IMG/VR virus record: IMGVR_UViG_3300045988_101367
Span: 11,047-75,046 of that record
DNA from: a virus
Reading direction: 5' to 3' (one strand)
DNA length: 64,000 bases
Position numbers and translations under genes: made by a program. How positions within the stretch are numbered: position 1 is the stretch's first letter; each line of letters begins with the position of its first letter. The notes under the pieces were generated by a model that was given only the letters and a program-made list of their open reading frames with translations, had not been told where the DNA came from and searched no databases. This document shows, piece by piece, positions 1-50,188 of this stretch.

Positions 1-632
1 GATTCTTCTAACTCTCCTTTACGAAATTTCTAATTAAGCCACTTTTTAAAATCTTCCATAGTTCCTCCATCGTCAAATTTTAAAAGACCTCCTTCAGCAT
101 TATAAGATATAGGTTGATTATCCTAACTCCACTATTTAAAGATAGCTTCAACATCCTATCCAGAATTTAAGGCTTTTCTCAGAGCCTTTCTCTAACCTCC
201 AGTATAAGCATATGGATCTAGTCCTCTACTAGACATAAAAGCTCTTACTTGTGATCGATTAAAATTATTAATTGGGGCATTTATAGAAGTTATTTCCTAT
301 ATACTAGGAGGAAGAGTAGCCTAATCTATTAACTGATTAGTAGCAGGACTATTAAACTATGGTTTAAAATATATTCCAATATTATAATCTTGTCCTGCAT
401 ATTTACCTTTAGTAGGATTCTAAAATACTCCCATCATTTGAGAACCCATATTAGAGGCAGCCTTCTAAAAATTAGAATTATCTCCAACATTACCTTTGAA
501 TTTACTAAAATAATCCCCAATTCCGGAATTCTATTCCTCTTTAGTCATAGTATTATAATCATTTCCATTCCAAGAAAAATAGCGATTACCTGCTTTTCTA
601 GCAGCATTAAATGCCTGTTTAAATTTCAACAT
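1..632 (-). CDS. late-region protein, 3' partial (gene runs past window start); TAG-recoded
   Basis: ATG at 632-630 (minus). A long protein-like frame (MLKFKQAFNAARKAGNRYFSWNGNDYNTM...) is open only if plus-strand cta (minus TAG) codons are read as sense. Plus-strand ORFs 390-665 and 705-908 are antisense to it. Confidence 0.4.
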
Positions 633-1464: not shown

Positions 1465-1737
1465 TCACCATTTATTTACAGGACAGTGTGCATTTACAAG
1501 TCTAGTCTTAGCATTAAGACGACATCCACAACCATTTTGATAACCTGGTCGTGCATTTGTACTCACATCTCCCGTTTCTACATTTAACCATAATCTACTA
1601 TTACACATTCCGCCTAGAGCGTTACTAAATAACGGGCATCTATGACAGATTTTTAATCTAGCTTCAGAAATATCAGTATCTAACCCTAGGGCTTCTTTAG
1701 CATGACCTTCTATAATCTAAGCAATAGGTAATTTCAT
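1465..1737 (-). CDS. small Cys-rich zinc-ribbon protein (CxxC...CxxC), one in-frame TAG
   Basis: Manual minus-strand translation: MKLPIA(Q)IIEGHAKEALGLDTDISEARLKICHRCPLFSNALGGMCNSRLWLNVETGDVSTNARPGYQNGCGCRLNAKTRLVNAHCPVNKW. Confidence 0.4.
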
Positions 1738-6471: not shown

Positions 6472-6687
6472 ATGAAATAGTTTTTAATTAAATTAATAAC
6501 AGCACATACTGGAATAAGTAGTAAAAGAGTGTGTGGAATATTAGGATGGATAGTAAGTTTAATTATTCTAATATACTGTTCTATTAGTTAGATACAAGCT
6601 CCTGATATGATAGATACAGTTTTATATTGTTGTATGGGATTACTAGGTATAGATAGTATAACTAGTATATGGAAAAATAAAGTATAA
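6472..6687 (+). CDS. small two-TM membrane protein (holin-like candidate), 2 in-frame TAG
   Basis: MK(Q)FLIKLITAHTGISSKRVCGILGWIVSLIILIYCSIS(Q)IQAPDMIDTVLYCCMGLLGIDSITSIWKNKV; two hydrophobic helices. Confidence 0.3.
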
Positions 6688-6689
6688 AT

Positions 6690-7826
6690 ATGCCAATAGT
6701 AGATGAGAGTAAACAAAATAAAGGAGTAAATAATAATACTCGGAATAAATAGATGGCTATAGATATGGAATATTATAATAGATTAAATCATCCTAGATTT
6801 AAATCTTCATATCTTGGTGCTAAATATTAGTAGAGAGTTATTCCCGTTAGAACTTTAAATGGGGTACAAGATGTATTTGTAGATAATAGAGGGACTATAA
6901 AATAGGGTGGGCATACTAATTTTAAATTATATAATTATAGTAATAAGAATAGAACCCATCCTATAAAAGGAGCTTATGCTAGAGAAGTAGATAGTTGGAA
7001 TAATAATACTAGTCCTATTAAAGCATTAGTTAATTCAGGAATAGGTTATGCTTTAGCTCCAGCTGCTTAGGCAGTATATGATTATACTAAAGGTGCTTTA
7101 GATATATCTAAGAATCTAACTAAAGCTAGTAATTATTTAGTAATGCTTCCTGTAATAGGATATGCTGTAAAAGTTCCTTTAAAACGTGGAGTAGAAGTAG
7201 CTATGAGAACTTCTAATAATGCGAATCCTATAGAAGACATAGTATATAATATGCATAAGGCAAGTCCTAAAAAACATGCTGGAGTATTTTCTTATATATC
7301 AACTGGTGTAGGTTACAATACCTATGCTCCTGAAGCATATACTGGATTTTAGAAAGCAGCTAAAGGCAATGATATGATTGATGCTTATTTATATAATAAA
7401 ACTATAAATCCTTCTTATGGAGTAAGAAAGATAAATGTAGATTATGGTCCACATGAAAATTATATAAGAAAGATATATCCTTATAAAGATATTCCTGTAT
7501 ATGAAAATACAGAAACTTTAGATTTCTTTACTAAGAAACCTATGTAGAAAGCTTCTAATATAACTAATAAAACTCCTTGGAAAGGTGCTAATAATAATCT
7601 AGATTTTGGAGATAATGGAGTTGAGGCTGCTGGACATTTAGTTTAGGAAGGAACATCTAATGGTAAGAAAGTATATAGAGCACAAGATATTTGGAAGTTT
7701 AATCCTGATGAATATAAGTAGAAATGGAGTTCATATGATTTAGACAGTAAAGCTGTATTAGGATTAAAAATATTAGATAAATTAGGAACTCCAGTAATAG
7801 TAAGAACACCATGGCTGTATAGATAA
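6690..7826 (+). CDS. hypothetical late/structural protein (378 aa) with about 9 in-frame TAG
   Basis: ATG 6690 to TAA 7824-7826 is a multiple of 3. The frame is continuous and protein-like, and includes track ORF 7143-7352, only when TAG is sense. Confidence 0.5.
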
Positions 7827-9444: not shown

Positions 9445-9445
9445 G

Positions 9446-9517
9446 TTCTCCCACAAGGATTCGAACCCTGACTAAAAGATTTAGAGTCTTCTGTGCTAAC
9501 CATTACACCATAGGAGA
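9446..9517 (-). tRNA. tRNA-Sup(CUA), amber suppressor
   Basis: Hand-folded cloverleaf: acceptor TCTCCTA/TGGGAGA, D-stem GTGT/GCAC, anticodon stem GAAGA/TCTTT with loop CTCTAAA (U33, anticodon CTA, A37), T-arm CAGGG-TTCGAAT-CCTTG, discriminator A. No CCA encoded. Confidence 0.7.
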
Positions 9518-9705: not shown

Positions 9706-10008
9706 TTAATTTTTTGTAATGTTTCTATCATTTAAAAAATCCACTATGTGTTTAAATTCTTGTTTATATTTTTTATATTTAGAATTATCTAAATTAGAAG
9801 AAAAATCTTCTAAAGATATATCTGAGATAATTCCAAATATTAGACAAGCATTGTTAAATGTTTCATCATCTAATTTACTACAATATTCTTCAAATTCATC
9901 TACCTTTTTAGTCATGGTTATATGAATTACATTATCAATAACCTATAAATTTATATTATACTAATCAGGAAGGTCTTTAATACTTTGTATTAGTTGTTCT
10001 TTATTCAT
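9706..10008 (-). CDS. hypothetical protein (~100 aa) with 2 in-frame TAG in an N-terminal extension
   Basis: Track ORF 9706-9915 extends upstream through two TAG to ATG 10008-10006 (MNKEQLIQSIKDLPD(Q)YNINL(Q)VIDNVIHITMTKKVDEFEEY...). Confidence 0.35.
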
Positions 10009-10125
10009 TTAATATTTCTTTTTGATTACACGAGTAATATAGTCGAGGTAGGGAATATTAAAAGTTAATTTTTGTAAAAGTTAATATTCTAAGATTTTTA
10101 AATTAAAATTTTAAAAATTCAATTA

Positions 10126-10593
10126 CTAAATAAACTTATACTCAATTATATTTTTTATAATTTGAGTTCTATCAGATATTTTACCTTTAAAAAAGTATTC
10201 AGGATTTAAATAGTAAACAGCTTTATATCTAGAATCTTTTAATAACATCTTTTTCTTTACTAAAGAAGTAATAGTATTACGTATAGTTCCAGCAGCTAAG
10301 TTAGTTTTAATTTTAATAGTATCTCTAAGTTCTTCATCTAAAGAAATCTTATTTCCTGGAAGTGCCCTATCTTTATCTTCATAATAATTAGAAGTATACC
10401 ATAAAACAGCTAATACATTAGACTCTGCTTTAGATAACTTATAAAATTCTTCATTATCTCTTAAATATATCTGGCAGAATTGTTCAGCACTAACAGTTTT
10501 AATAGCTGATAATATCTCTCCACCCACTCCAACTTTAATTGACTCTATTTGTTTCATATTAACATTTGTTTTAATTAAAATTAATTTATTCAT
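10126..10593 (-). CDS. hypothetical protein (~155 aa), possible DNA-binding regulator
   Basis: Track ORF uses a TTG start; the first ATG gives MNKLILIKTNVNMKQIESIKVGVGG.... No confident family assignment. Confidence 0.35.
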   Translation of the reverse strand: MNKLILIKTNVNMKQIESIKVGVGGEILSAIKTVSAEQFCQIYLRDNEEFYKLSKAESNVLAVLWYTSNYYEDKDRALPGNKISLDEELRDTIKIKTNLAAGTIRNTITSLVKKKMLLKDSRYKAVYYLNPEYFFKGKISDRTQIIKNIIEYKFI

Positions 10594-10609
10594 ATGATTC
10601 AAAATAAAT

Positions 10610-10637
10610 TCACAAAAATTATGTCACAAAAATTATG
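10610..10637. repeat. 14-bp direct repeat x2 (tcacaaaaattatg)
   Basis: Two tandem copies seen directly, just upstream (in minus orientation) of gene 10126-10593. Confidence 0.8.
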
Positions 10638-10820
10638 AATAGAACAAATGTAGGAATGAATGAAGTGAATCCTCCAATGAATAGAATAAATCTGTGAGTG
10701 CATAAAAAATTTGTAAGTGTCTGATAATCAAGGAGTTATGAAAATACCCTTCTTATCTTATACGTGAAAAATATTTTACATTTTTAAAATTTTAAAATTT
10801 TTAAGGTTACTTTATATATT

Positions 10821-10993: not shown

Positions 10994-11413
10994 ATGTCAC
11001 AGATTACAGTAGGTAAAGATGGCGATGTTCGCCACAGCGCTATGTCAGCTAGACAAATAGCTGAAGAAACAAAGCAGAGTACAAACATCAGATTGGCATT
11101 TGGTGCCATAGTACAACTGAATGCGCAGGATTTTACAATTCCTGCGAACATGATGACTGGGCAGCCAGCTCAGCCATCGCAAATACTCACCGCCAGCGGT
11201 ATCACCGTTGGTAATTTGGAAGGGGAGCGTACTGTGAATGTTACTCGCATCTTGTCTTTAGTTTGCCTAGGTTGCAATAACTTAACACAGGCATCTACTT
11301 GGTTGGCTGACCATCATGTAGTAGGTTTTGATGTTGATATTGAAACATTACAGAACTATGGCAACGCACGAAGATTTTCTAATGTGCGTTTGGTAACTGA
11401 GAATGCTGAGTAA
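10994..11413 (+). CDS. hypothetical protein (139 aa), GC-rich moron-like gene
   Basis: ORF composition (~45% GC by eye) differs sharply from the flanks. It is bounded upstream by C-tracts and downstream by a strong terminator. No family recognised. Confidence 0.5.
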   Translation: MSQITVGKDGDVRHSAMSARQIAEETKQSTNIRLAFGAIVQLNAQDFTIPANMMTGQPAQPSQILTASGITVGNLEGERTVNVTRILSLVCLGCNNLTQASTWLADHHVVGFDVDIETLQNYGNARRFSNVRLVTENAE

Positions 11414-11417
11414 CAAA

Positions 11418-11454
11418 GGGGAGAGAGTAATCTCTCTCCTTTAAAATTTTTTTT
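11418..11454 (+). terminator. rho-independent terminator
   Basis: ggggagagag-taat-ctctctcc stem followed by tttaaaattttttttt. Confidence 0.6.
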
Positions 11455-12516
11455 ATAAATTTCTTTGTATTTTTTGTATATGTTCAAAACTATTAAGGGA
11501 GTTTATGGGAAAAATAAACTTGTTGACTTAGAAACTTTAGAATTCTACAATGTTCAACTTCCGACACAAATTGTTGGAATTTTTATGTTGTTGATTATTG
11601 AGAATGATAAAGTTATCGTGGTCAAGTATGCTAATTGGAGAAATAGCTGGAATTGGTGGGGAATAAGTTGGGATTGGGTGAGGAAGGTGAGTTATTTATA
11701 TGGTTTGGTATGAGTTTTTGTGTTCACACAAACCTCCCATCCACCAAACAAACCTTTCCCAATTTCCCAATCTCTCTCACTAAAACCAACTTATATATCA
11801 CTCCAAAAATCATCATCACATCAAATAAATTTTAAGGATATTGTACAATAATATTTTTATTCTTTGTAAGATGTTTAATCAAAAATAATAAAAACAAAAG
11901 GTTTTTACCCAAAAGTTGAAATCCCTGTCTAAAGTTTACTTTAGACGAAATTCTATATCGTAAATTAGCTAAGTTGATGAATCTTATAATTAATGGGAAA
12001 TTTACACAACGAAAAATGTATTATGTATCTATTGATACTGCGATATTTAAACTTATAAACAATTTAACTATTTAAATAAAATGAAGAAATACAACATTTG
12101 GAATAAAATTTTCCATAAAAGGAAATTAAACAAGAATGTTGCGGATTATAAACTTCAACAAAGTCTTGTTAATAGTTATGAGTCTAAACGATACTCCATA
12201 AAAGAATTTGGCGTAAAGGGTTTCGTAATGCTAACCTTGATCCAGATAAATATGGAATGTTTAAGATATATAAATGAGGTTTATATTGGAGGAATCTATG
12301 GTCTTAATACTCGAACTATCGCACGATTCTAAAAAAGAACCATATACACAGACATGCTATGTCTTATGTGCTTATAAAAGATTGTTAAAATCTAATATTA
12401 TAGCACTTGCAGATAATGCTAAGTTATTAGTACCAACAAAATAATTATAAGATTCTTACAATCCTACTTATAGGAATGGGTAAAATAGCATATAATAATT
12501 TTAAAGAAATGAACTC

Positions 12517-12885
12517 ATGAAAAATTTAAATAAAAAAATTATATCAGGTTGTGAGAGTCTTGCCGGTAAAGCTCTCACAATAGATCATGATGCTAAAACT
12601 TATCACATTGGTGATAGAGTAATTCCATTTTCTTCTTGTGTTATTAAAGAAGGTAAAATTTATTACTTGACACCAATGTGTAAAGCTCTTATTAATATGG
12701 GTTTTAATGGCGTAGCAGATTTTACCTCTAATACAGTTATTTGTACTAGTTTTGATAATTGTAATTGCAATATTAAAACTGTAGGACCTGTAACTATCGA
12801 CGATAGAGTCTTTATTAAGATTACTCTTAATTCAGAATTTCCAATGTATGAAAGTTACGAATCTTTAAGAAGTGAAGTTTATTAA
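12517..12885 (+). CDS. hypothetical Cys-rich protein (122 aa)
   Basis: Track ORF; its 3' end lies inside the tandem duplication. Confidence 0.4.
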   Translation: MKNLNKKIISGCESLAGKALTIDHDAKTYHIGDRVIPFSSCVIKEGKIYYLTPMCKALINMGFNGVADFTSNTVICTSFDNCNCNIKTVGPVTIDDRVFIKITLNSEFPMYESYESLRSEVY

Positions 12886-13286
12886 GTAAAAGAATGAATC
12901 TGCACTCTAGTACTATAGAGTATAATGAATAGTTGGCATCTTGGAAAGAAAATTGGTTAATCATAAGACAAGACTTATGTATTTTTAAAATAAAATAGTT
13001 ATCAACTAATACAGTTATTTGTACTAGTTTTGATAATTGTAATTGCAATATTAAAACTGTAGGACCTGTAACTATCGACGATAGAGTCTTTATTAAGATT
13101 ACTCTTAATTCAGAATTTCCAATGTATGAAAGTTACGAATCTTTAAGAAGTGAAGTTTATTAAGTAAAAGAATGAATCTGCACTCTAGTACTATAGAGTA
13201 TAATGAATAGTTGGCATCTTGGAAAGAAAATTGGTTAATCATAAGACAAGACTTATGTATTTTTAAAATAAAATAGTTATCAACAA
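12729..13286 (+). repeat. perfect tandem duplication, 2 x ~279 bp
   Basis: Sequence from taatacagttatttgtactag... to ...aaaatagttatcaac occurs twice back to back (12729-13007 and 13008-13286). Copy 2 carries a fragment of the 3' end of gene 12517-12885. Confidence 0.8.
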
Positions 13287-15730: not shown

Positions 15731-15811
15731 GCGGAGTTAGCTTAATGGCTAGAGCACCTCACTTCCACAATTCATAGAGAGGTTATATTGGTTCGAATCC
15801 TTTACTCCGTA
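15731..15811 (+). tRNA. tRNA-like gene with non-canonical anticodon region
   Basis: Acceptor GCGGAGT/ACTCCGT, normal D-arm, T-arm ATTGG-TTCGAAT-CCTTT (two U-U mismatches). No 5-7-5 anticodon hairpin is present; only ACCTC...GAGGT pairs, around an 18-nt loop, so the anticodon is unresolved. Confidence 0.3.
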
Positions 15812-16240: not shown

Positions 16241-16324
16241 ACGGTAGTAGCTCAGTGGTTAGAGCATCTCTTTTTATAATAGGTCATTTCGAGAAGGTCA
16301 TTGGTTCGAATCCTTTCTACCGTA
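16241..16324 (+). tRNA. tRNA-like gene, long extra arm, anticodon loop TTTTATA (nominal anticodon UUA)
   Basis: Acceptor ACGGTAG/CTACCGT perfect, D-arm GCTC-AGTGGTTA-GAGC, weak anticodon stem TCTCT/ATAGG (one mismatch), same unusual T-arm ATTGG-TTCGAAT-CCTTT as the 15731 gene. Confidence 0.3.
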
Positions 16325-16406
16325 CAAATTTAATTTGATATATTGTTAGTGTGTTTGGATAAATCCTGTATTAGTACGTTACCACTATTCTCCTTTATAG
16401 AAATGT

Positions 16407-16462
16407 AGGCTATAGCTCAAAAGGTTAGAGCACCCCGAGATTGTGGTTCGATTCCACATATC
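16407..16462 (+). tRNA. tRNA-like remnant (D-arm-like plus T-arm TGTGG-TTCGATT-CCACA, no anticodon arm)
   Basis: Only about 56 nt of tRNA-like sequence; no acceptor pairing found. Confidence 0.2.
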
Positions 16463-16469
16463 TCCCTAT

Positions 16470-16545
16470 ATACGGATGCCTGAGTGGTCGAAAGGGTAGG
16501 TCTCCAAAACCTATAGAGACGAAAGTTGAACAACTACTCCGTGTG
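16470..16545 (+). tRNA. tRNA-like gene with anticodon arm TAGGT-CTCCAAA-ACCTA (anticodon CCA); T-arm not canonical
   Basis: Acceptor ATACGGA/TCCGTGT pairs and the D region GAGTGGTCGAAAGGG is class-II-like, but the 3' part lacks a TTCGAAT-type T-arm. Confidence 0.3.
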
Positions 16546-16565: not shown

Positions 16566-16639
16566 GCTTTCTAAGCTTTAAGGTGAAGTACGAAACTTTT
16601 AATTTCGGGAAGACAGGTCAGTACTGTCAGGGAGCACCA
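16566..16639 (+). tRNA. tRNA-Lys(TTT), CCA encoded
   Basis: Acceptor GCTTTCT/AGGGAGC (two G-U), anticodon arm CGAAA-CTTTTAA-TTTCG, T-arm GACAG-GTCAGTA-CTGTC, 3' ACCA. Confidence 0.6.
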
Positions 16640-19029: not shown

Positions 19030-19134
19030 TTAAATATGGCGGAATTGGTATACGGCAGTAGATTGACGGAAGCGCCTCTAAAGTCGTCGTTAAATATTTC
19101 TTGAGGATTAAAGGTTCGAATCCTTTTGTTTAAG
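19030..19134 (+). tRNA. tRNA-like element (~105 nt) with canonical T-arm AAAGG-TTCGAAT-CCTTT but unresolved body
   Basis: AT-only acceptor pairing TTAAATA/TGTTTAA. It contains a CTCTAAA loop identical to the suppressor tRNA anticodon loop, but I could not fold a stem around it. Confidence 0.2.
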
Positions 19135-19451: not shown

Positions 19452-19523
19452 AAATGTGTAGCTCAGTGGTTAGAGCATCTATCGTTGAGTAGAAGGTTGG
19501 CAGTTCAAATCTGTCCACATTTC
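19452..19523 (+). tRNA. tRNA with atypical anticodon arm (possible 8-nt loop)
   Basis: Acceptor AAATGTG/CACATTT perfect, D-arm GCTC-AGTGGTTA-GAGC, T-arm GGCAG-TTCAAAT-CTGTC. The anticodon region folds as TCTA-TCGTTGAG-TAGA. Confidence 0.4.
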
Positions 19524-19719
19524 CTTTTTCTATCATTATTTTAATTTTTAATTTATTAAAAATAAAAGAGCTTTGCTTGTGAAAGTAGAGCTCTTATCAA
19601 AATTATGCGAAAACTTTAATAAGTCGGAGGACTTACAAAAACTCAAAAACAGTGTGTCTTAGTTGCAACGTTCTCTTGACTGAGAAAGGAGAGGATTAAC
19701 GACCCTCAGACACATCTTC

Positions 19720-24844: not shown

Positions 24845-25087
24845 AGTTGCCTGACATTGATGCTCTAATAAAAGAAAATACTTCTGATGAGTTTATTGAA
24901 AGGAAAATCAACGATATTCTAGGTATTAAAGAAAAATGAACATGAATAATAACGATAATAACTTAGAAATCTTAGAAGAATTTACATACTCCATTCTCAA
25001 AGACCTAAAAAGTTTAGAACCCGATATATCTCAACTAGTAGATGGATATTTTTGGCATTTAGTAGTATAGAACTTAAAAAAAAATAA

Positions 25088-25387
25088 ATGATATTCTATA
25101 GATTTGGTGAAATTCCAGAAGATGAATGTTCATCTATATGGAACAATAATAATGAAGTAATAGGTAAAGAAAAAGGTGTGTCTGTTTATGAAGCTCATAA
25201 AAACATAAATGGAATATACTCTCCTGTTCTTCCATTTCCAACAAATGAGATAGCATTTAATGATTTTATATATAATGTAAAATACTTTACTGGCAATAAA
25301 TATCTAGTAACTGGTGATTTGTTAGATGAAACTGGTACTGATGGCGAACCATTAATTAAGAATGTAAAAATATTAAAAAAATTATAG
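25088..25387 (+). CDS. hypothetical protein (99 aa)
   Basis: Track ORF. Confidence 0.4.
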   Translation: MIFYRFGEIPEDECSSIWNNNNEVIGKEKGVSVYEAHKNINGIYSPVLPFPTNEIAFNDFIYNVKYFTGNKYLVTGDLLDETGTDGEPLIKNVKILKKL

Positions 25388-27321: not shown

Positions 27322-27654
27322 GGGGCATTCGTGGTTTTGATTGTATAGGAGATAAGAAACACAGCAAGACAGTTGGAGAGACAACAAAACAATAATCGCT
27401 AGAGTTATCAATATGACTCCTGTTTCTTACGCTATTGCAGCCTAAGAAACCGAGCAGCACTTGCTTGGGAACGGAAAGGTGCATTATTCTTTTATTTCTT
27501 TATTAGTTCTCTGTATACTTTAGGAACAGAGTGGTGGAAGTTGGCAATGTTAATCTTGTCAACCCTAACAGACAAGGATAGTCTTTAAAACCTATGCTGT
27601 AAGAACGTTTTGATGCAAATATGCAAGACTGGAGTTCGACTCTCCAATGCTCCA
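27322..27654 (+). ncRNA. ssrA: tmRNA (SsrA-like) candidate
   Basis: 5' GGGGCAT pairs with 3' ATGCTCC (one G-U), giving a tRNA-like acceptor with discriminator A. 3' T-arm TGGAG-TTCGACT-CTCCA. Internal tag-like reading frame ...aat atg act cct gtt tct tac gct att gca gcc TAA (…SYAIAA*) resembles the ...YALAA tmRNA tag ending. No protein ORF in the region. Confidence 0.55.
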
Positions 27655-27688
27655 CTAGTTCATAGAACTATTTTATTATTTGTTTTTA

Positions 27689-27730
27689 ATCCCTGGGCTA
27701 TTATTATAGTTCAGGGATTTTTGTTTAATT
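27689..27730 (+). terminator. rho-independent terminator
   Basis: aatccctg-ggctattattatagtt-cagggatt followed by tttg/ttt. Confidence 0.5.
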
Positions 27731-28699: not shown

Positions 28700-28966
28700 A
28701 TGGGTAAACAAATTTGGTTGCAAGATGGCAACGTTTTTAGTCAGGGTAGTGCGACAACAGTATCTCATCCTGAAGGATTACCGAAAGGTATTTATGAAGT
28801 AAAAGTCTCAATGACTGGATTTTACTTAAGTAAAATCGCTGAGTCTTTTACGTTTGATTACAAACTGTATGGTCTAAACCAAAAATTTATTAATTATGTC
28901 TTAAAGACATATGATAACACTACAGGTAATTTAGGTGTTCTGTTAGACGGAATCAAAGGAACTGGT
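28700..28966 (+). CDS. AAA+ ATPase, exon 1 (ends in Walker A ...LLDGIKGTG)
   Basis: The ORF terminates right after GIKGTGKI. Joining ...ggt (28966) to exon 2 aaa aca gtt... restores the GxxxxGKT Walker A. Confidence 0.5.
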
Positions 28967-30277
28967 AAAATTTAAGCAAATTCAGTAAGCTTAAATTTTT
29001 AAAAATTTTATATTTATTTGGATTTAATAAAATTTCATATATATTATAATAATATTAATTTTAACTATATGAATATGAAATTTGTAATTAATGAAGAATT
29101 AGGAGAAAAAATTAAAACTTTGTACTTAATAGATGGATTAAGTTGTACTAAGATTGGTAAAGAGGTTGGAATTTCTACTTCTACTATAAGTTCATTTCTA
29201 AAAAGAAATGGAATTGAAGTAGTTAATAAACAAAACAAATTATTATTTGATCTAGATAAAGATATTATTCCTAAATATAAGCAAGGGATAAGTTTATCTA
29301 AATTAGCTAAAGAGTATCATACTTCTATCCAAACTTTGTCTAGAAAATTAAAAGCTAAAGGGATTGAAATAATCAATCATCAAAATGAAACTAAATTTAA
29401 TGAACATATCTTCGATGTTATAGATACCGAGGAGAAGGCTTATTGGTTAGGATTTATATTTGCTGATGGTTATATTTCATCAAGAGATAACGGTTTTGAA
29501 CTATCTTTAAAAGGCTCTGATATTGAACACTTACATAAATTTAATAAGTTTATGGAGCATAATAAAGATAATGTCAAATTAGGGGAAGTTAAGAATAAAG
29601 ATAAAACTTTTTTAAGATGTCGCTGGGGAATAGTCAATAAGCACTTATGGAATACTCTAAATAATTTAGGATGTATTCCAAGAAAAAGTTTAACTCTTCA
29701 ATTTCCTAATATTTCTGAAGAATTAAAAATTCCTTTTATTAGAGGATACTTTGACGGAGATGGTTGTCTAAGTTATTATTAGAGAGCTAAAATTTTACCA
29801 AAAGTTTCATTTCTAGGAACTGAGCAATTTTTAGTAAAGATACAATCAATATTAAATAATTTTAATATAAAAAGTTCTTTAGTAAAAGATGCGCGAATGG
29901 AAAATACTCTAGTATTAAATGTATCTTCAACAAATTCTTTAGATTTTTTAGACTTAGTATATAGTAATAGTTCCATTTATTTAGACAGAAAATATAAAAG
30001 ATATAAAATTTTTAAAACTTGCCGTTCTAAACAGGAATGTTTAGAATTATTAGCGGGTGAAAACGGAGAAGGCTGTGATGCTAATTCCGTGGTAAATGAA
30101 GATAGTAACGAATCTTCATCACTGTAACGCGTAGAAGTTGAAACTCTTATAAGAGAATATAATACTTCCAAGAGCACCCGCTCTCCCAATCATTTGAATG
30201 GAGAAAAAGGTACGCTGAGCTATAACAAACAAGAAGTTATAGAAATATAGATAAAAAGCTATATGATAACAATACTG
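28967..30277 (+). mobile_element. group I-like self-splicing intron carrying a LAGLIDADG homing-endonuclease ORF; approximate boundaries
   Basis: It splits an ATPase gene between Walker A and Walker B. The 5' exon ends in U and the intron ends in G (…atactg|aaaacag). Its 3' ~230 nt and first ~20 nt are homologous to the ORF-less intron at 60123-60374. Confidence 0.5.
29018..30127 (+). CDS. LAGLIDADG homing endonuclease (two motifs) with N-terminal HTH repeats; needs readthrough of TAG 29780-29782
   Basis: AYWLGFIFADGYIS and IRGYFDGDGCLSYY are the two LAGLIDADG motifs. The track ORF stops at TAG immediately after motif 2, yet the same frame continues (…(Q)RAKILPKVSFLGTE(Q)FLVKIQSILNNFNIKSSLVKDARMENTLVLNV…) to TAA 30125-30127, as expected for a full-length enzyme. 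Confidence 0.6.
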
Positions 30278-31165
30278 AAAACAGTTACCGCAAAGGAACT
30301 TTGTAATCATTTACAGCTTCCTGTGATCTTAGTACAATCAATGGGTGTTGATACTAATAGTAAATTAATAAAATATTTATCTACCTCTATTGATTTTGAC
30401 TGTATCTTCTTCTTTGATGAATATGAGAAAGAATTTAAAAATTCTTCAGATGTTCTTTCTTTCATGGATGGTACTTATAACTCTATTTATCGTAAGGTAT
30501 TTTTACTTACTACTAATGAGTTAAATGTAGACCCAGATCTTCTTGGTAGACCTTCTAGAATAAGATATAAAAAGTCTTTCAGTAATCTTTCTGAGGAAGT
30601 TACTAGAGAGATTCTTAATGATATCTTGGAAGATAAAACTGCTATAGAAAAGGTTATAGAGCTAACTCATTCTATGAATATTATTACTATAGACTTAATT
30701 AAAGCTATAGCAACTGAAATTAATATTCATGGAGTAGAAGCTCTTCCTGATATTAAAGAAACCTTTAATATTGAATTCTCTAGGTTTACTTATTTGTATA
30801 GAGAAGTACAAATCAGACATTGTGACTTGAAATTTACTCCTGAAAATATAAAGAATATATTAAAAGCTTTTTATAAGTTTAAAGAAATTAAAAAGAAAGA
30901 TTGGAAGAAACATACTCGTGAAGAAAGCAAATTCTATAACGAATGGTCTACTAAGTTCAATGAGGATTATGGTTCCACTACTGAGGATAAAGAGTTAAAA
31001 TATCTGGAACCTGGAGATTATTTTGAGGATGATCGTATATTGATGGTAAGTATTAAAGAAAAATATGTAGTAACTATGACTGATTATGGGAATATTAGAA
31101 TATATATAATTAATAGTTGCTATTCTACAAGTAAAGCTACAGGTCTTGTAAATTACGAATTATAA
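30278..31165 (+). CDS. AAA+ ATPase, exon 2 (Walker B FFFDEYE, sensor LLTTN, Arg-finger-like RPSR)
   Basis: KTVTAKELCNHLQLPVILVQSMGV…CIFFFDEYE…VFLLTTNE…LLGRPSRIRY; the track ORF 30263-31165 begins inside the intron 3' end. Confidence 0.5.
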   Translation, partial: KTVTAKELCNHLQLPVILVQSMGVDTNSKLIKYLSTSIDFDCIFFFDEYEKEFKNSSDVLSFMDGTYNSIYRKVFLLTTNELNVDPDLLGRPSRIRYKKSFSNLSEEVTREILNDILEDKTAIEKVIELTHSMNIITIDLIKAIATEINIHGVEALPDIKETFNIEFSRFTYLYREVQIRHCDLKFTPENIKNILKAFYKFKEIKKKDWKKHTREESKFYNEWSTKFNEDYGSTTEDKELKYLEPGDYFEDDRILMVSIKEKYVVTMTDYGNIRIYIINSCYSTSKATGLVNYEL

Positions 31166-47934: not shown

Positions 47935-48921
47935 ATGACAACAGTTTTAGGTGATAAACTCAATCAAGCTTTTGAAGCTAAGAATAACGATGTAGAAACA
48001 TTTCTCTGGAAAGGTTCCAGAAAAATTGTAGATGGTGAACGCATTCAGTCTTCCATGAAAATGATAGATATGACTGAAGAAGAATTATGTAAAGCATATA
48101 AACATTGTGAATCAATGCTTTATAGTGACAACTATGAAAATCCTGGACGACAAGTTTTGTTGGAACAGATTGAAGATCAAAGAACTCGCTGTAATGCTGA
48201 GTTGTTCTTAATTTGGCTATTGTACCCAGGTGAAGGTAGTACTAGACAAGGTATTGTAAGAACTAGTTTCTTTAATATGCTCAATCAGCAGATTACTGCT
48301 CAGGCAGAACAGTTTGCTAAAGAGAATGCAGAAAGTGGTGAGGGCGAAACAAATGTTAGTGCTATTGCAGAAACTCTCTTTAAAGAGTGGACTCTTAATG
48401 ATATTATGAATAGTGATGAAGATTCATTTACCATGTTTGCTTCATTACCATTGTATATCGTTAGAGAAGCTTGTTTATCTGCTTTAGGTAAATGTATCCG
48501 TAAACACATTACTCTTACATTTATTACTGAGCTTGGATTGTGGTTTACACGTTCTGAGTTATTAGAATTAAATAAAAAAGACGAGAATGGTCGTTTAGTA
48601 GATAGAATTAAGCAAGTTGCTGAACTTCTAAATATTAAACTGAGAGACCCTAAGAATCCTGAAGATAGAAAAGGTCTTGTTTTAAAAATTAATGATAGAA
48701 AAGGCTTAACTCTAAAAGAGTTTAGCGCAATGCTTACCTTCCGTAAGGATAAATATGATAAGCGTTATAATGATCTGACTAAAGTACAATTGGAAACCTT
48801 AAGAGATAAAGTTTTACTGCATCTCGAAAATAAGGTTAGATGGCAAGCTTCAGAGTGGGAGAAGCGTATTAAACAAATCAAAGCAGTAGCTGATTACAAT
48901 GGCTACAAACTCTCTGATTGA
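47935..48921 (+). CDS. hypothetical protein (328 aa)
   Basis: Track ORF. Confidence 0.45.
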   Translation: MTTVLGDKLNQAFEAKNNDVETFLWKGSRKIVDGERIQSSMKMIDMTEEELCKAYKHCESMLYSDNYENPGRQVLLEQIEDQRTRCNAELFLIWLLYPGEGSTRQGIVRTSFFNMLNQQITAQAEQFAKENAESGEGETNVSAIAETLFKEWTLNDIMNSDEDSFTMFASLPLYIVREACLSALGKCIRKHITLTFITELGLWFTRSELLELNKKDENGRLVDRIKQVAELLNIKLRDPKNPEDRKGLVLKINDRKGLTLKEFSAMLTFRKDKYDKRYNDLTKVQLETLRDKVLLHLENKVRWQASEWEKRIKQIKAVADYNGYKLSD

Positions 48922-50188
48922 AGGAGAACTATTTCATAAAATCACTAGAGATGAACGACAAGAAGAGTGTCGTAGAAAATGGATAAAAAATCGTTGTGTG
49001 GGGACAATAGTCGCATCTACTGGATTTGGTAAGAGCAGAATAGGACTAAACTGTATTAAAACAGTGCTAAAACACTTTCCACAATATCGAGTACTAATAA
49101 TTGTACCAACAGAAACTTTACAAAAACAATGGTGTGGTCATATAGATTCTAATGGGCTAGGATTAAGTTGTGATGTACAAATAATAAACACTGTAATAAA
49201 ACATCCTGCCAAATATGATCTTTTAGTACTGGATGAAGCGCATAGATATGCAGCTGAGACTTTTGTAAGATTATTTGAAGTAGTAAAATACCAATTTATC
49301 TTAGGTCTTACAGCTACTTTTGAGCGTCTTGATGGTAGAGATAAAATATTAGCAAAATACTGTCCAGTAATTGATACTATTGATATTAATACTTGTCTTG
49401 CAAATGGTTGGGTTAGCCCATATAAAGAATATCTAGTCTTAGTAAATGTTGATGATTTAGAAGAATATGAAAAAATAAATAAAGAATTCATTTCTCATTT
49501 TGAATTCTTCGGATTCTCTTGGGAGTTAGTTAATAAATTAGCCGGTCCTATGGGTTGGCGAAATAAACTACTCCTAAGAGATTCTATGTGTAGTGATCCT
49601 AATAAAAAGTCTGAAGTATTACAAAGTATAAATTATCATGCTATCAGATTTTGGTCTACTATGCATGAGAAAAAAGCTTTCATAAATAATCATCCAAAGA
49701 AAATTGAAATAGTAAAGAAAATTATAGAAGCTAGAAAGGATAAAAAAATAATAACTTTTGCTAATAATATTAAAATGGCAGAAAAAATTCCTAATGCTAC
49801 TGTATATTCTAGTAGAACTTCTAAGAAAAGAAGTGCTACAGCTATTGAAGATTTTAACTCTGGAAAGATAACTTTATTATCTACAGTAAAAAAAGCTGAT
49901 GAAGGACTTGATGTAAAAGGTCTTTCTGTAGCTATTATATTTGGATTAGATAGTTCAACTACTAGAGCTTGTCAACGGAGAGGAAGATCAATCCGCTTTG
50001 AGAAAGGTAAGACAGCAGAGATATTCAATATAGTATTAAATAGGACTCAAGAGACCAAGTGGTTTTATGATTCTCATAAGAGAGATTCTTTTATAACTAT
50101 AGACGAATCAGAATTGGATAAAGTATTACAAGGTAAAGACTTTACCCCAGGTGAAAAGATAGTTCCTAAATTTGATTTTAGATTCTGA
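48899..50188 (+). CDS. superfamily-2 DEAD/DEAH-box helicase
   Basis: Walker A-like TGFGKSRIG, motif II LVLDEAHRY, SAT-like TAT, and C-terminal helicase motifs (QRRGRSIR). Confidence 0.65.
   Translation: MATNSLIEGELFHKITRDERQEECRRKWIKNRCVGTIVASTGFGKSRIGLNCIKTVLKHFPQYRVLIIVPTETLQKQWCGHIDSNGLGLSCDVQIINTVIKHPAKYDLLVLDEAHRYAAETFVRLFEVVKYQFILGLTATFERLDGRDKILAKYCPVIDTIDINTCLANGWVSPYKEYLVLVNVDDLEEYEKINKEFISHFEFFGFSWELVNKLAGPMGWRNKLLLRDSMCSDPNKKSEVLQSINYHAIRFWSTMHEKKAFINNHPKKIEIVKKIIEARKDKKIITFANNIKMAEKIPNATVYSSRTSKKRSATAIEDFNSGKITLLSTVKKADEGLDVKGLSVAIIFGLDSSTTRACQRRGRSIRFEKGKTAEIFNIVLNRTQETKWFYDSHKRDSFITIDESELDKVLQGKDFTPGEKIVPKFDFRF

Follow-up and report, generated by a model that had tools for sequence, protein, structure and literature searches.

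A transfer-messenger RNA gene carried by a large, uncultivated gut phage

The stretch of viral DNA analysed here, hereafter called the window, comprises 64,000 nucleotides (positions 11,047 to 75,046 of the IMG/VR record IMGVR_UViG_3300045988_101367) and carries a genuine phage-borne gene for transfer-messenger RNA (tmRNA, ssrA). The gene is of the one-piece type and occupies positions 27322 to 27654 of the plus strand, 333 nt from G1 to the discriminator A. A first-pass annotation had proposed a phage tmRNA with a tag ending in ...SYAIAA at this position, and this proposal is borne out by two independent tmRNA finders, ARAGORN and Rfam, by strong covariation among homologues and by signs of coding within the tag. 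Most likely, the gene is functional in a large, AT-rich, uncultivated gut phage, probably with a host among the Prevotellaceae, and serves ordinary trans-translation by means of host factors. Phage tmRNAs have been reported before, from huge phages, from phage G and in the tmRNA database, so that the finding in itself is not surprising and the gene adds another member to those known.

The gene, its relatives and selection on its structure

ARAGORN called a tmRNA at 27322-27655 with the tag ARVINMTPVSYAIAA*, and the Rfam model RF00023 matched 27322-27657 from end to end (model positions 1 to 374; 49.1 bits against a gathering score of 47, E 2e-16). Both calls are thus of full length. Posterior probability in the Rfam alignment is high at the two ends and low in the middle, where the pseudoknots PK2-PK4 are expected. 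The elements that had first drawn attention to the stretch are all present (Table 1): the acceptor pairing GGGGCAT/ATGCTCC, which includes the G3:U70 wobble, the 3' discriminator A, the T arm TGGAG-TTCGACT-CTCCA, and the short frame ending ...TAC GCT ATT GCA GCC TAA. One correction applies: CCA is not encoded in the window copy, where CTA follows the discriminator A. The resume codon GCU is preceded by UAA-UC, and the Rfam alignment sets this GCU on the consensus resume codon. The spacing of UAA-UC-GCU equals that of UAG-UC-GCA in Escherichia coli.

Homologues were collected by exact-pattern scans of viral contigs and by one scan of metagenome contigs. The search word of the latter, a 16-mer, was too short and gave mostly chance matches, and 11 of its loci held true homologues. 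In total, 36 further loci were found to carry a homologue, with the gene at the same locus, or 37 copies when the window is counted, of which 30 are unique in sequence. The metagenome contig ULJR01000368.1 shows 100% identity across the gene, and the sole deposited phage record carrying it is MT835492, from human faeces. The flank downstream of the gene is also conserved in the homologues.

Covariation was assessed on a MAFFT alignment of 28 homologues, using 31 pairs from the T stem, the helices H2a-d and the hairpin at the position of pseudoknot PK1. These are 97.9% paired, against 88.2% in shuffled alignments, and 11 of them have changed on both sides; neither value was reached in any of 500 shuffles, and controls with slid pairing partners gave 33-48% pairing. 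The pairing is far beyond chance. The acceptor, T stem, H2a, H2b, PK1 hairpin and stop-codon helix each occur in 2-10 sequence versions, all of which pair. The acceptor exists in three fully paired versions (GGGGCAU/AUGCUCC, GGGGCUA/UAGCUCC and GGGGAUG/CAUCUCC), while G3:U70 and the discriminator A73 are invariant across the 28 aligned sequences. Three versions were likewise found of the T stem, with four of five pairs changed on both sides and 100% pairing. Helices H2a-d comprise 22 pairs, seven of which have changed on both strands, and their pairing reaches 99-100%: H2a has three versions, all paired, with both-side changes in 5/7 pairs; H2b has four versions, two pairs changed on both sides and 100% pairing; H2c is invariant and H2d 99% paired. 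The PK1 hairpin GUUG/CAAC of type 1 alleles has ACUUG/CAAGU as its paired counterpart in type 2. Finally, UUUGA of the D-loop analogue is retained in every allele and in the ssrA genes of Prevotellaceae.

The tag frame behaves as a coding sequence, and its stop codon sits in a helix. This stop-codon helix is kept in 10 haplotypes: where GUU>GCU turns a V codon into one for A, AAAC>AAGC restores the pairing, and a UGA stop in place of UAA forms a U:G pair. Differences among tags of one type comprise four that are synonymous, at third positions, against one non-synonymous. The tag stop is TAA in 26 of the 37 loci and TGA in 11, and TAG in none.

The family as a whole is a mosaic of modules, made up of three tRNA-like domains, three H2a versions, two versions of the PK1 region and tag start, and three tags, namely ARVINMTPVSYAIAA, GEVNNTS[V/A]SYAIAA and ARVINMTPAYQAAA. 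The window has the type A domain, whereas type B reads GGGGCUA...GACGG-GGCAGUA-CCGUC-UAGCUCC and type C GGGGAUG...AGGGG-UUCGACU-CCCCU-CAUCUCC. Every tag type occurs with both domain types A and B, which indicates that recombination is frequent and has separated the modules. The two halves of the tRNA-like domain, in contrast, lie 300 nt apart and are always of the same type (15 A-A, 12 B-B and 1 C-C among unique sequences); mismatched halves were never seen, as predicted by selection on acceptor pairing and on the contact between D and T loops. The tRNA-like domain, H2, the tag frame with its standard resume context and the stop helix have thus been kept by selection across many alleles. With modules recombining freely and halves remaining matched, the family offers an unusually clear population record, and a clean natural test of tmRNA structure.

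Table 1. Features of the tmRNA gene and of related loci. Window coordinate = gene position + 27321; loci other than the window are given by contig handle, with contig coordinates where available.
Feature	Coordinates	Gene position	Strand	Remarks
Acceptor stem, 5' strand GGGGCAU	27322-27328	1-7	+	G3 in G3:U70 wobble, alanine identity element
D-loop analogue UCGUGGUUUUGA	27329-27340	8-19	+	contains GG and conserved UUUGA
H2a, 5' strand UUGUAUA	27341-27347 with 27620-27626	20-26 / 299-305	+	covariation
H2b, H2c, H2d, 5' strands GAAAC, ACAGC, AAGAC	27356-27370	35-39, 40-44, 45-49	+	covariation/pairing
H2b, H2c, H2d, 3' strands	27607-27611, 27596-27600, 27581-27585	286-290, 275-279, 260-264	+	
PK1-position hairpin GUUG-GAGAGA-CAAC	27372-27385	51-64	+	followed by A-rich tail AAAACAAUAAUC
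Tag reading frame	27398-27445	77-124	+	resume codon GCU at 27398 (gene 77), 15 sense codons, stop TAA 27443-27445 (gene 122-124)
Stop-codon helix (H5-like), 8 bp	27422-27450		+	GUUUCUUA (27422-27429) pairs with UAAGAAAC (27443-27450)
Region in place of PK2-PK4	27450-27563		+	helix candidates only, low Rfam posterior probability
Candidate PK2	27450-27482		+	CCGAGC/GCUUGG plus GCACU/AGGUGC
Candidate stem CUCUGU/ACAGAG	27509-27514 with 27526-27531		+	
Candidate hairpin GUUGGCA/UGUCAAC	27540-27546 with 27557-27563		+	
T arm UGGAG-UUCGACU-CUCCA	27630-27646	309-325	+	canonical T loop; from sequence
Acceptor stem, 3' strand AUGCUCC, and discriminator A	27647-27654 (stem 27647-27653, A 27654)	326-332, 333	+	sequence, allele comparison
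Small hairpin AGUUCAUAGAACU	~27658-27670		+	precedes terminator-like hairpin
Terminator-like hairpin and T run	27688-27729		+	terminator scan, 1 found against 0.3 expected
tRNA-Lys(UUU)-like gene	16566-16639		+	acceptor GCTTTCT/AGGGAGC, AA at 8-9, T arm GACAG-GTCAGTA-CTGTC, encoded ACCA
Type B tmRNA loci	L001 3986-4318 (MT835492), L004, L009, L010, L012, L014, L016, L017, L020-L025, L028, L079, L118, L132			
Type C tmRNA locus (n=1)	L060 5666-5997			
Odd-elbow tRNA loci	L346-L365, L370, L376, L383, L403, L420, L444; L459 1485-1558; L460 ~1497-1570			

Probable host, predicted function and rival explanations

A scan of bacterial genomes with the Bacteroidota-type tag GENNYALAA confirmed this tag and retrieved ssrA from Segatella copri, from several Prevotella and from related genera. 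The sister type 2 allele has an exact 18-nt match, AAAAAATTAATTGGCGAA, to the ssrA of Segatella copri across the resume codon, and the two have an identical resume context, AAAAAAUUAAUU followed by GGCGAA. This match points to a Prevotellaceae origin and host. The type 1 allele of the window has a different resume region from type 2.

The same match could be read as the sign of a passenger, a copy of bacterial ssrA that was captured or mis-assembled and has no selected function in the phage. The gene is, however, ~64 nt shorter than the host genes (333 against ~397 nt), has 40% G+C against 46-49%, and is 67-71% identical to them where the hosts are 77-84% identical among themselves, on a crude global measure. 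It is placed between phage ORFs (open reading frames) in DNA of 29% G+C and recurs at the same locus in the 36 other loci, with compensatory changes and without mismatched halves, and the covariation already contradicts a passenger. We consider this explanation very unlikely. Slightly less probable still is that the sequence serves as an attachment site for integration into the host ssrA. The ssrA gene is often an integration target (PMC11915505), but the phage copy is of full length and not a 3' fragment, and its 3' end is identical to that of no host ssrA examined. A Pfam search of the 104 ORFs of the window found no integrase or recombinase domain, and likewise no SmpB or release factor.

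In ordinary trans-translation, the transcript would be cut by the RNase P and 3' exonucleases of the host, and CCA would be added by a host enzyme. The G3:U70 pair suggests that the RNA would be charged with alanine by the host alanyl-tRNA synthetase. SmpB, supplied by the host or by a phage copy encoded outside the window, and EF-Tu would then bring the RNA to ribosomes that have stalled on mRNAs which are broken or lack a stop. The nascent chain would gain ARVINMTPVSYAIAA, with a ...AA-COOH signal for host proteases, and the ribosome would be freed at UAA. The phage might benefit from a greater rescue capacity while host mRNA is degraded and while TAG switches from stop to sense, a switch which should cause read-through to mRNA ends or stalling at TAG.

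A role in connection with recoding may be proposed from the window itself. It has 12-13 tRNA genes, including suppressor-type tRNAs with the anticodons CUA and UUA. A junction test gave three in-frame TAG junctions, a modest signal suggesting that some genes of the window use TAG as a sense codon. In DNA so rich in AT, comparing ORF lengths under different sets of stop codons gave no information. The tmRNA may be linked to TAG reassignment, considering the suppressor tRNA and in-frame TAGs, the lack of TAG among the tag stops and the precedent of E. coli lacking release factor 1 (RF1), where tmRNA acts at unassigned UAG (PMC6207430). The amber (CUA) tRNA is located at 9445-9517 on the minus strand, and the ochre (UUA) tRNA at 16241-16325 on the plus strand. 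The latter is 85 nt in length, its extra arm is long and some of its stems are weak. If it actively suppressed UAA, this would be puzzling, because TAA is the main stop of the window genes, ending 43/63 long frames of the plus strand, and also ends the tmRNA tag.

Several observations weigh against a functional gene of the ordinary kind. The RF00023 score is just 2 bits above the threshold with the middle of the RNA poorly aligned, and the minimum-energy fold is modestly better than shuffles (z -1.65). The check on pseudoknots gave a divided answer: the hairpin at the PK1 position covaries, but helix enumeration on the alignment found no second PK1 stem, and PK1 appears to be reduced to a hairpin with an A-rich tail. 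By the same enumeration, the PK2-PK4 candidates show one-sided, wobble-compatible changes only and none on both sides. The phage tag is longer than GENNYALAA and has Ile in place of the host Leu, so that targeting to proteases is assumed. SmpB was found neither in the window nor in the flanks of those related loci that were searched by tblastn with E. coli and B. subtilis SmpB. A profile scan of viral contigs gave 399 SmpB relatives, and among the best 80 of the 399, none is on a contig with a tmRNA of the window's type. Viruses were hindered where tmRNA acted at UAG in the recoded E. coli (PMC6207430), which leaves the direction of any benefit linked to recoding uncertain. Furthermore, expression, charging and tagging are all predicted from the sequence.

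The divergent tags also bear on a different role, in which the phage and host tmRNAs would compete for SmpB, alanyl-tRNA synthetase and stalled ribosomes, and the phage RNA would either block tagging or add a tag that host adaptors and proteases handle differently, with the effect that phage products are protected or the host response is blunted. Such a competitor could explain why the phage tags have 14-15 residues and end in ...SYAIAA or ...AYQAAA where the host tag is uniformly GENNYALAA, and why three tag versions coexist in the population. A pure decoy, however, would not need a tag frame, resume context and stop helix, and these are conserved, with mostly synonymous changes, while all tags end in Ala-Ala, the usual degradation signal. 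We hold this role to be improbable, and ordinary trans-translation remains the reading we prefer.

Odd-elbow alleles and phage tRNAs

The window copy has a canonical UUCRANY T loop and a GG-containing D-loop analogue, neither of which is present in type B alleles. Type B, with the T loop GGCAGUA, makes up 18/37 loci, and these gave no ARAGORN call and either 34.3 bits or no match with Rfam. The 17-nt T arm of type B was also found in 21 unrelated viral contigs, always within a tRNA-like gene of a tRNA cluster. A degenerate scan with a filter for cloverleaf geometry recovered 27 unique genes with the T loop GGCAGUA or GUCAGUA, here called odd-elbow tRNAs. Members of this class, from unrelated phages, often share the identical 17-nt T arm. 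Their anticodons are those of Lys, His, Glu, Thr and Gly, with one CUA suppressor; positions 8-9 are mostly AA, and CCA is usually encoded at the 3' end. ARAGORN called none of them in the loci scanned, Rfam missed some, and most are unannotated in the GenBank records.

Odd-elbow T loops read G-[G/U]-C-R-G-U-A in place of U-U-C-R-A-N-N, and the D loop changes in concert with the T loop, AAGG accompanying GUC and A[A/U]AG accompanying GGC. The T loop GUCAGUA occurs with an AAGG D loop in 13/13 genes, and GGCAGUA with a D loop lacking GG in 13/14; Fisher's test on this association gives 7e-7, a value which is no true probability since the sequences are related. The D region of the type B tmRNA (UAGU) obeys the same rule. 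The type B domain thereby connects the tmRNA with a wider, apparently undescribed group of phage tRNAs: no description of a G-[G/U]-C-R-G-U-A T loop was found in the literature searched, the coverage of which is incomplete, so that novelty is not proven. Since half of the alleles and this class of phage tRNAs escape ARAGORN, and many of them Rfam, the numbers of tRNA and tmRNA genes in phages are underestimated.

The window has a member of the class, a tRNA-Lys(UUU)-like gene (Table 1), whose cloverleaf is the minimum-energy fold. With the non-canonical T loop GUCAGUA it gave no ARAGORN call and no RF00005 match at E up to 1. Conserved copies of it occur in the related contigs L004, L368, L390, L445, L447 and L450. 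Two cultured-phage examples were found in Streptomyces phage Warpy (L459), which has a tRNA-His of the class that is unannotated in 13/14 sibling genomes, and in Leptolyngbya phage Lbo-JY46 (L460), with an unannotated tRNA-Lys. Two other tmRNA-related sequences turned up among these loci. L363 has another phage tmRNA at 6510-6874, with a predicted tag of 31 residues ending ...KAVLVSA, which adjoins an odd-elbow tRNA-Lys, and L364 has a partial match to the permuted (two-piece) tmRNA model at 1234-1345 (44.6 bits), cut by the contig end.

A possible reason for the unusual elbow comes from the Cash (CRISPR-associated Schlafen) nucleases, which cut tRNAs in the T loop at UUC, and for which single mutations of U54 or U55 abolish cleavage (PMC13462974, 2026). 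Whether phage tRNAs are Cash targets was left open by the authors. The odd T loops lack U54, and one subclass also lacks U55. We tentatively speculate, while rating it as less probable than not, that the window lineage has a previously unrecognised class of tRNA-like domain whose elbow would give phage tRNAs and tmRNA resistance to antiviral nucleases, such as Cash, that cut the T loop at UUC. If true, an answer of this kind to T-loop-cutting defence nucleases would bear on whether phage tRNAs are targeted, and cultured test systems exist in Streptomyces phage Warpy and its relatives.

Type B may alternatively represent immunity to intron homing. One relative with the type A domain, L013, carries a group I intron of 867 nt (9877-10743; Rfam 85.9 bits) in the T loop of its tmRNA, inserted after UGGAGUU, and joining of the exons restores UUCGACU. 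Within the intron, in antisense orientation, lies an ORF of 209 aa (10044-10673) for an EndoVII/HNH-type endonuclease, identified with PHROGs; Pfam gave only a weak zinc-finger match. By our reading of the published numbering, the insertion subsite is the 'position 3' that has been described only from the class Bacteroidia (PMC11915505).

Genome context and comparison with known tmRNAs

Nearly all genes of the window, which has ~29% G+C, are on the plus strand. Pfam domains among its ORFs include SNF2 and DnaB-type helicases, RNase H, NrdD, NAMPT and a macro domain. An assignment to the Lak phages, first taken from megablast patches, was rejected: the helicase at 48899-50188 has no Lak match, and its best matches are MT835492 (99%), another faecal contig (46%), and Cellulophaga phi14:2 and a crAss-like phage (~27%). 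Recoded phages of the phAss type (PMC10607447) gave no match to the window in the phage collection. The sole similarity to Lak is a patch of 315 bp at 25072-25386 (88% identical) with an ORF of 99 aa that has no Pfam or PHROG match, and the patch suggests exchange between unrelated phages which would share hosts.

Several further features of the window were recorded. At 28700-31165, an AAA-ATPase-like gene is split just past Walker A (GIKGTGK / TVTA) by an insert of ~1.2 kb, which holds a LAGLIDADG endonuclease ORF at 29018-30127 with an in-frame TAG at 29780; in L013, the ATPase has a homologue at 11101-12249 that is intact. The insert was considered as a group I intron, but Rfam finds none. 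A perfect tandem duplication of 278 nt, with copies 100% identical, lies at 12728-13283 and is either real or an artefact of assembly. Among the tRNAs, the one at 19452-19524 (+) has a 6-nt anticodon loop (ARAGORN 'tRNA-???(tt)', Rfam 54 bits) and equivalents in L003, L004 and L007. The tRNA at 15731-15811, in the tRNA cluster, is called by Rfam and missed by ARAGORN. Weak or unusual tRNA-like matches in the same cluster are located at 16411-16460 and 16470-16545 (28 bits each) and at 19030-19134 (105 nt, 32.5 bits).

Compared with the ssrA genes of Prevotellaceae, the phage gene shares G3:U70, the discriminator A, UUUGA, the GAC neck elements, a long H2 and a tag that ends in Y-A-x-A-A followed by the stop. 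It differs from them in its 15-residue tag, in a PK1 that is apparently just a hairpin, in a downstream pseudoknot region that is shorter and unalignable, and in not encoding CCA.

Lak phages encode SmpB, whereas none was found near the tmRNA in the window lineage. Prevotella phage Lak-B5 has an SmpB homologue of 158 aa, 38% identical to E. coli SmpB, at L145 19968-20444; with ARAGORN, no tmRNA was called up to 20 kb away from this SmpB gene, but 18 clustered tRNA genes begin 6 kb downstream.

Among tmRNA genes that carry introns, the endonucleases reported are of the LAGLIDADG type (PMC11915505), whereas that of L013 is of the EndoVII/HNH type; the tmRNA of the window, unlike L013 and those genes, has no intron. 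Huge phages have been reported with tmRNAs (Al-Shayeb et al. 2020, PMC7162821), and phage G likewise (PMC12484599). Like that of the window, the tmRNAs of huge phages and megaphages are phage-borne, were found by ARAGORN and belong to genomes rich in tRNA genes, but the reports list the genes without the structural or population analysis presented here. Mycobacteriophage DS6A has a tmRNA-like gene without a tag frame, the product of which is inhibitory upon expression in E. coli. The DS6A gene and that of the window share the tRNA-like domain of a phage-encoded tmRNA, and only the gene of the window has a conserved tag frame.

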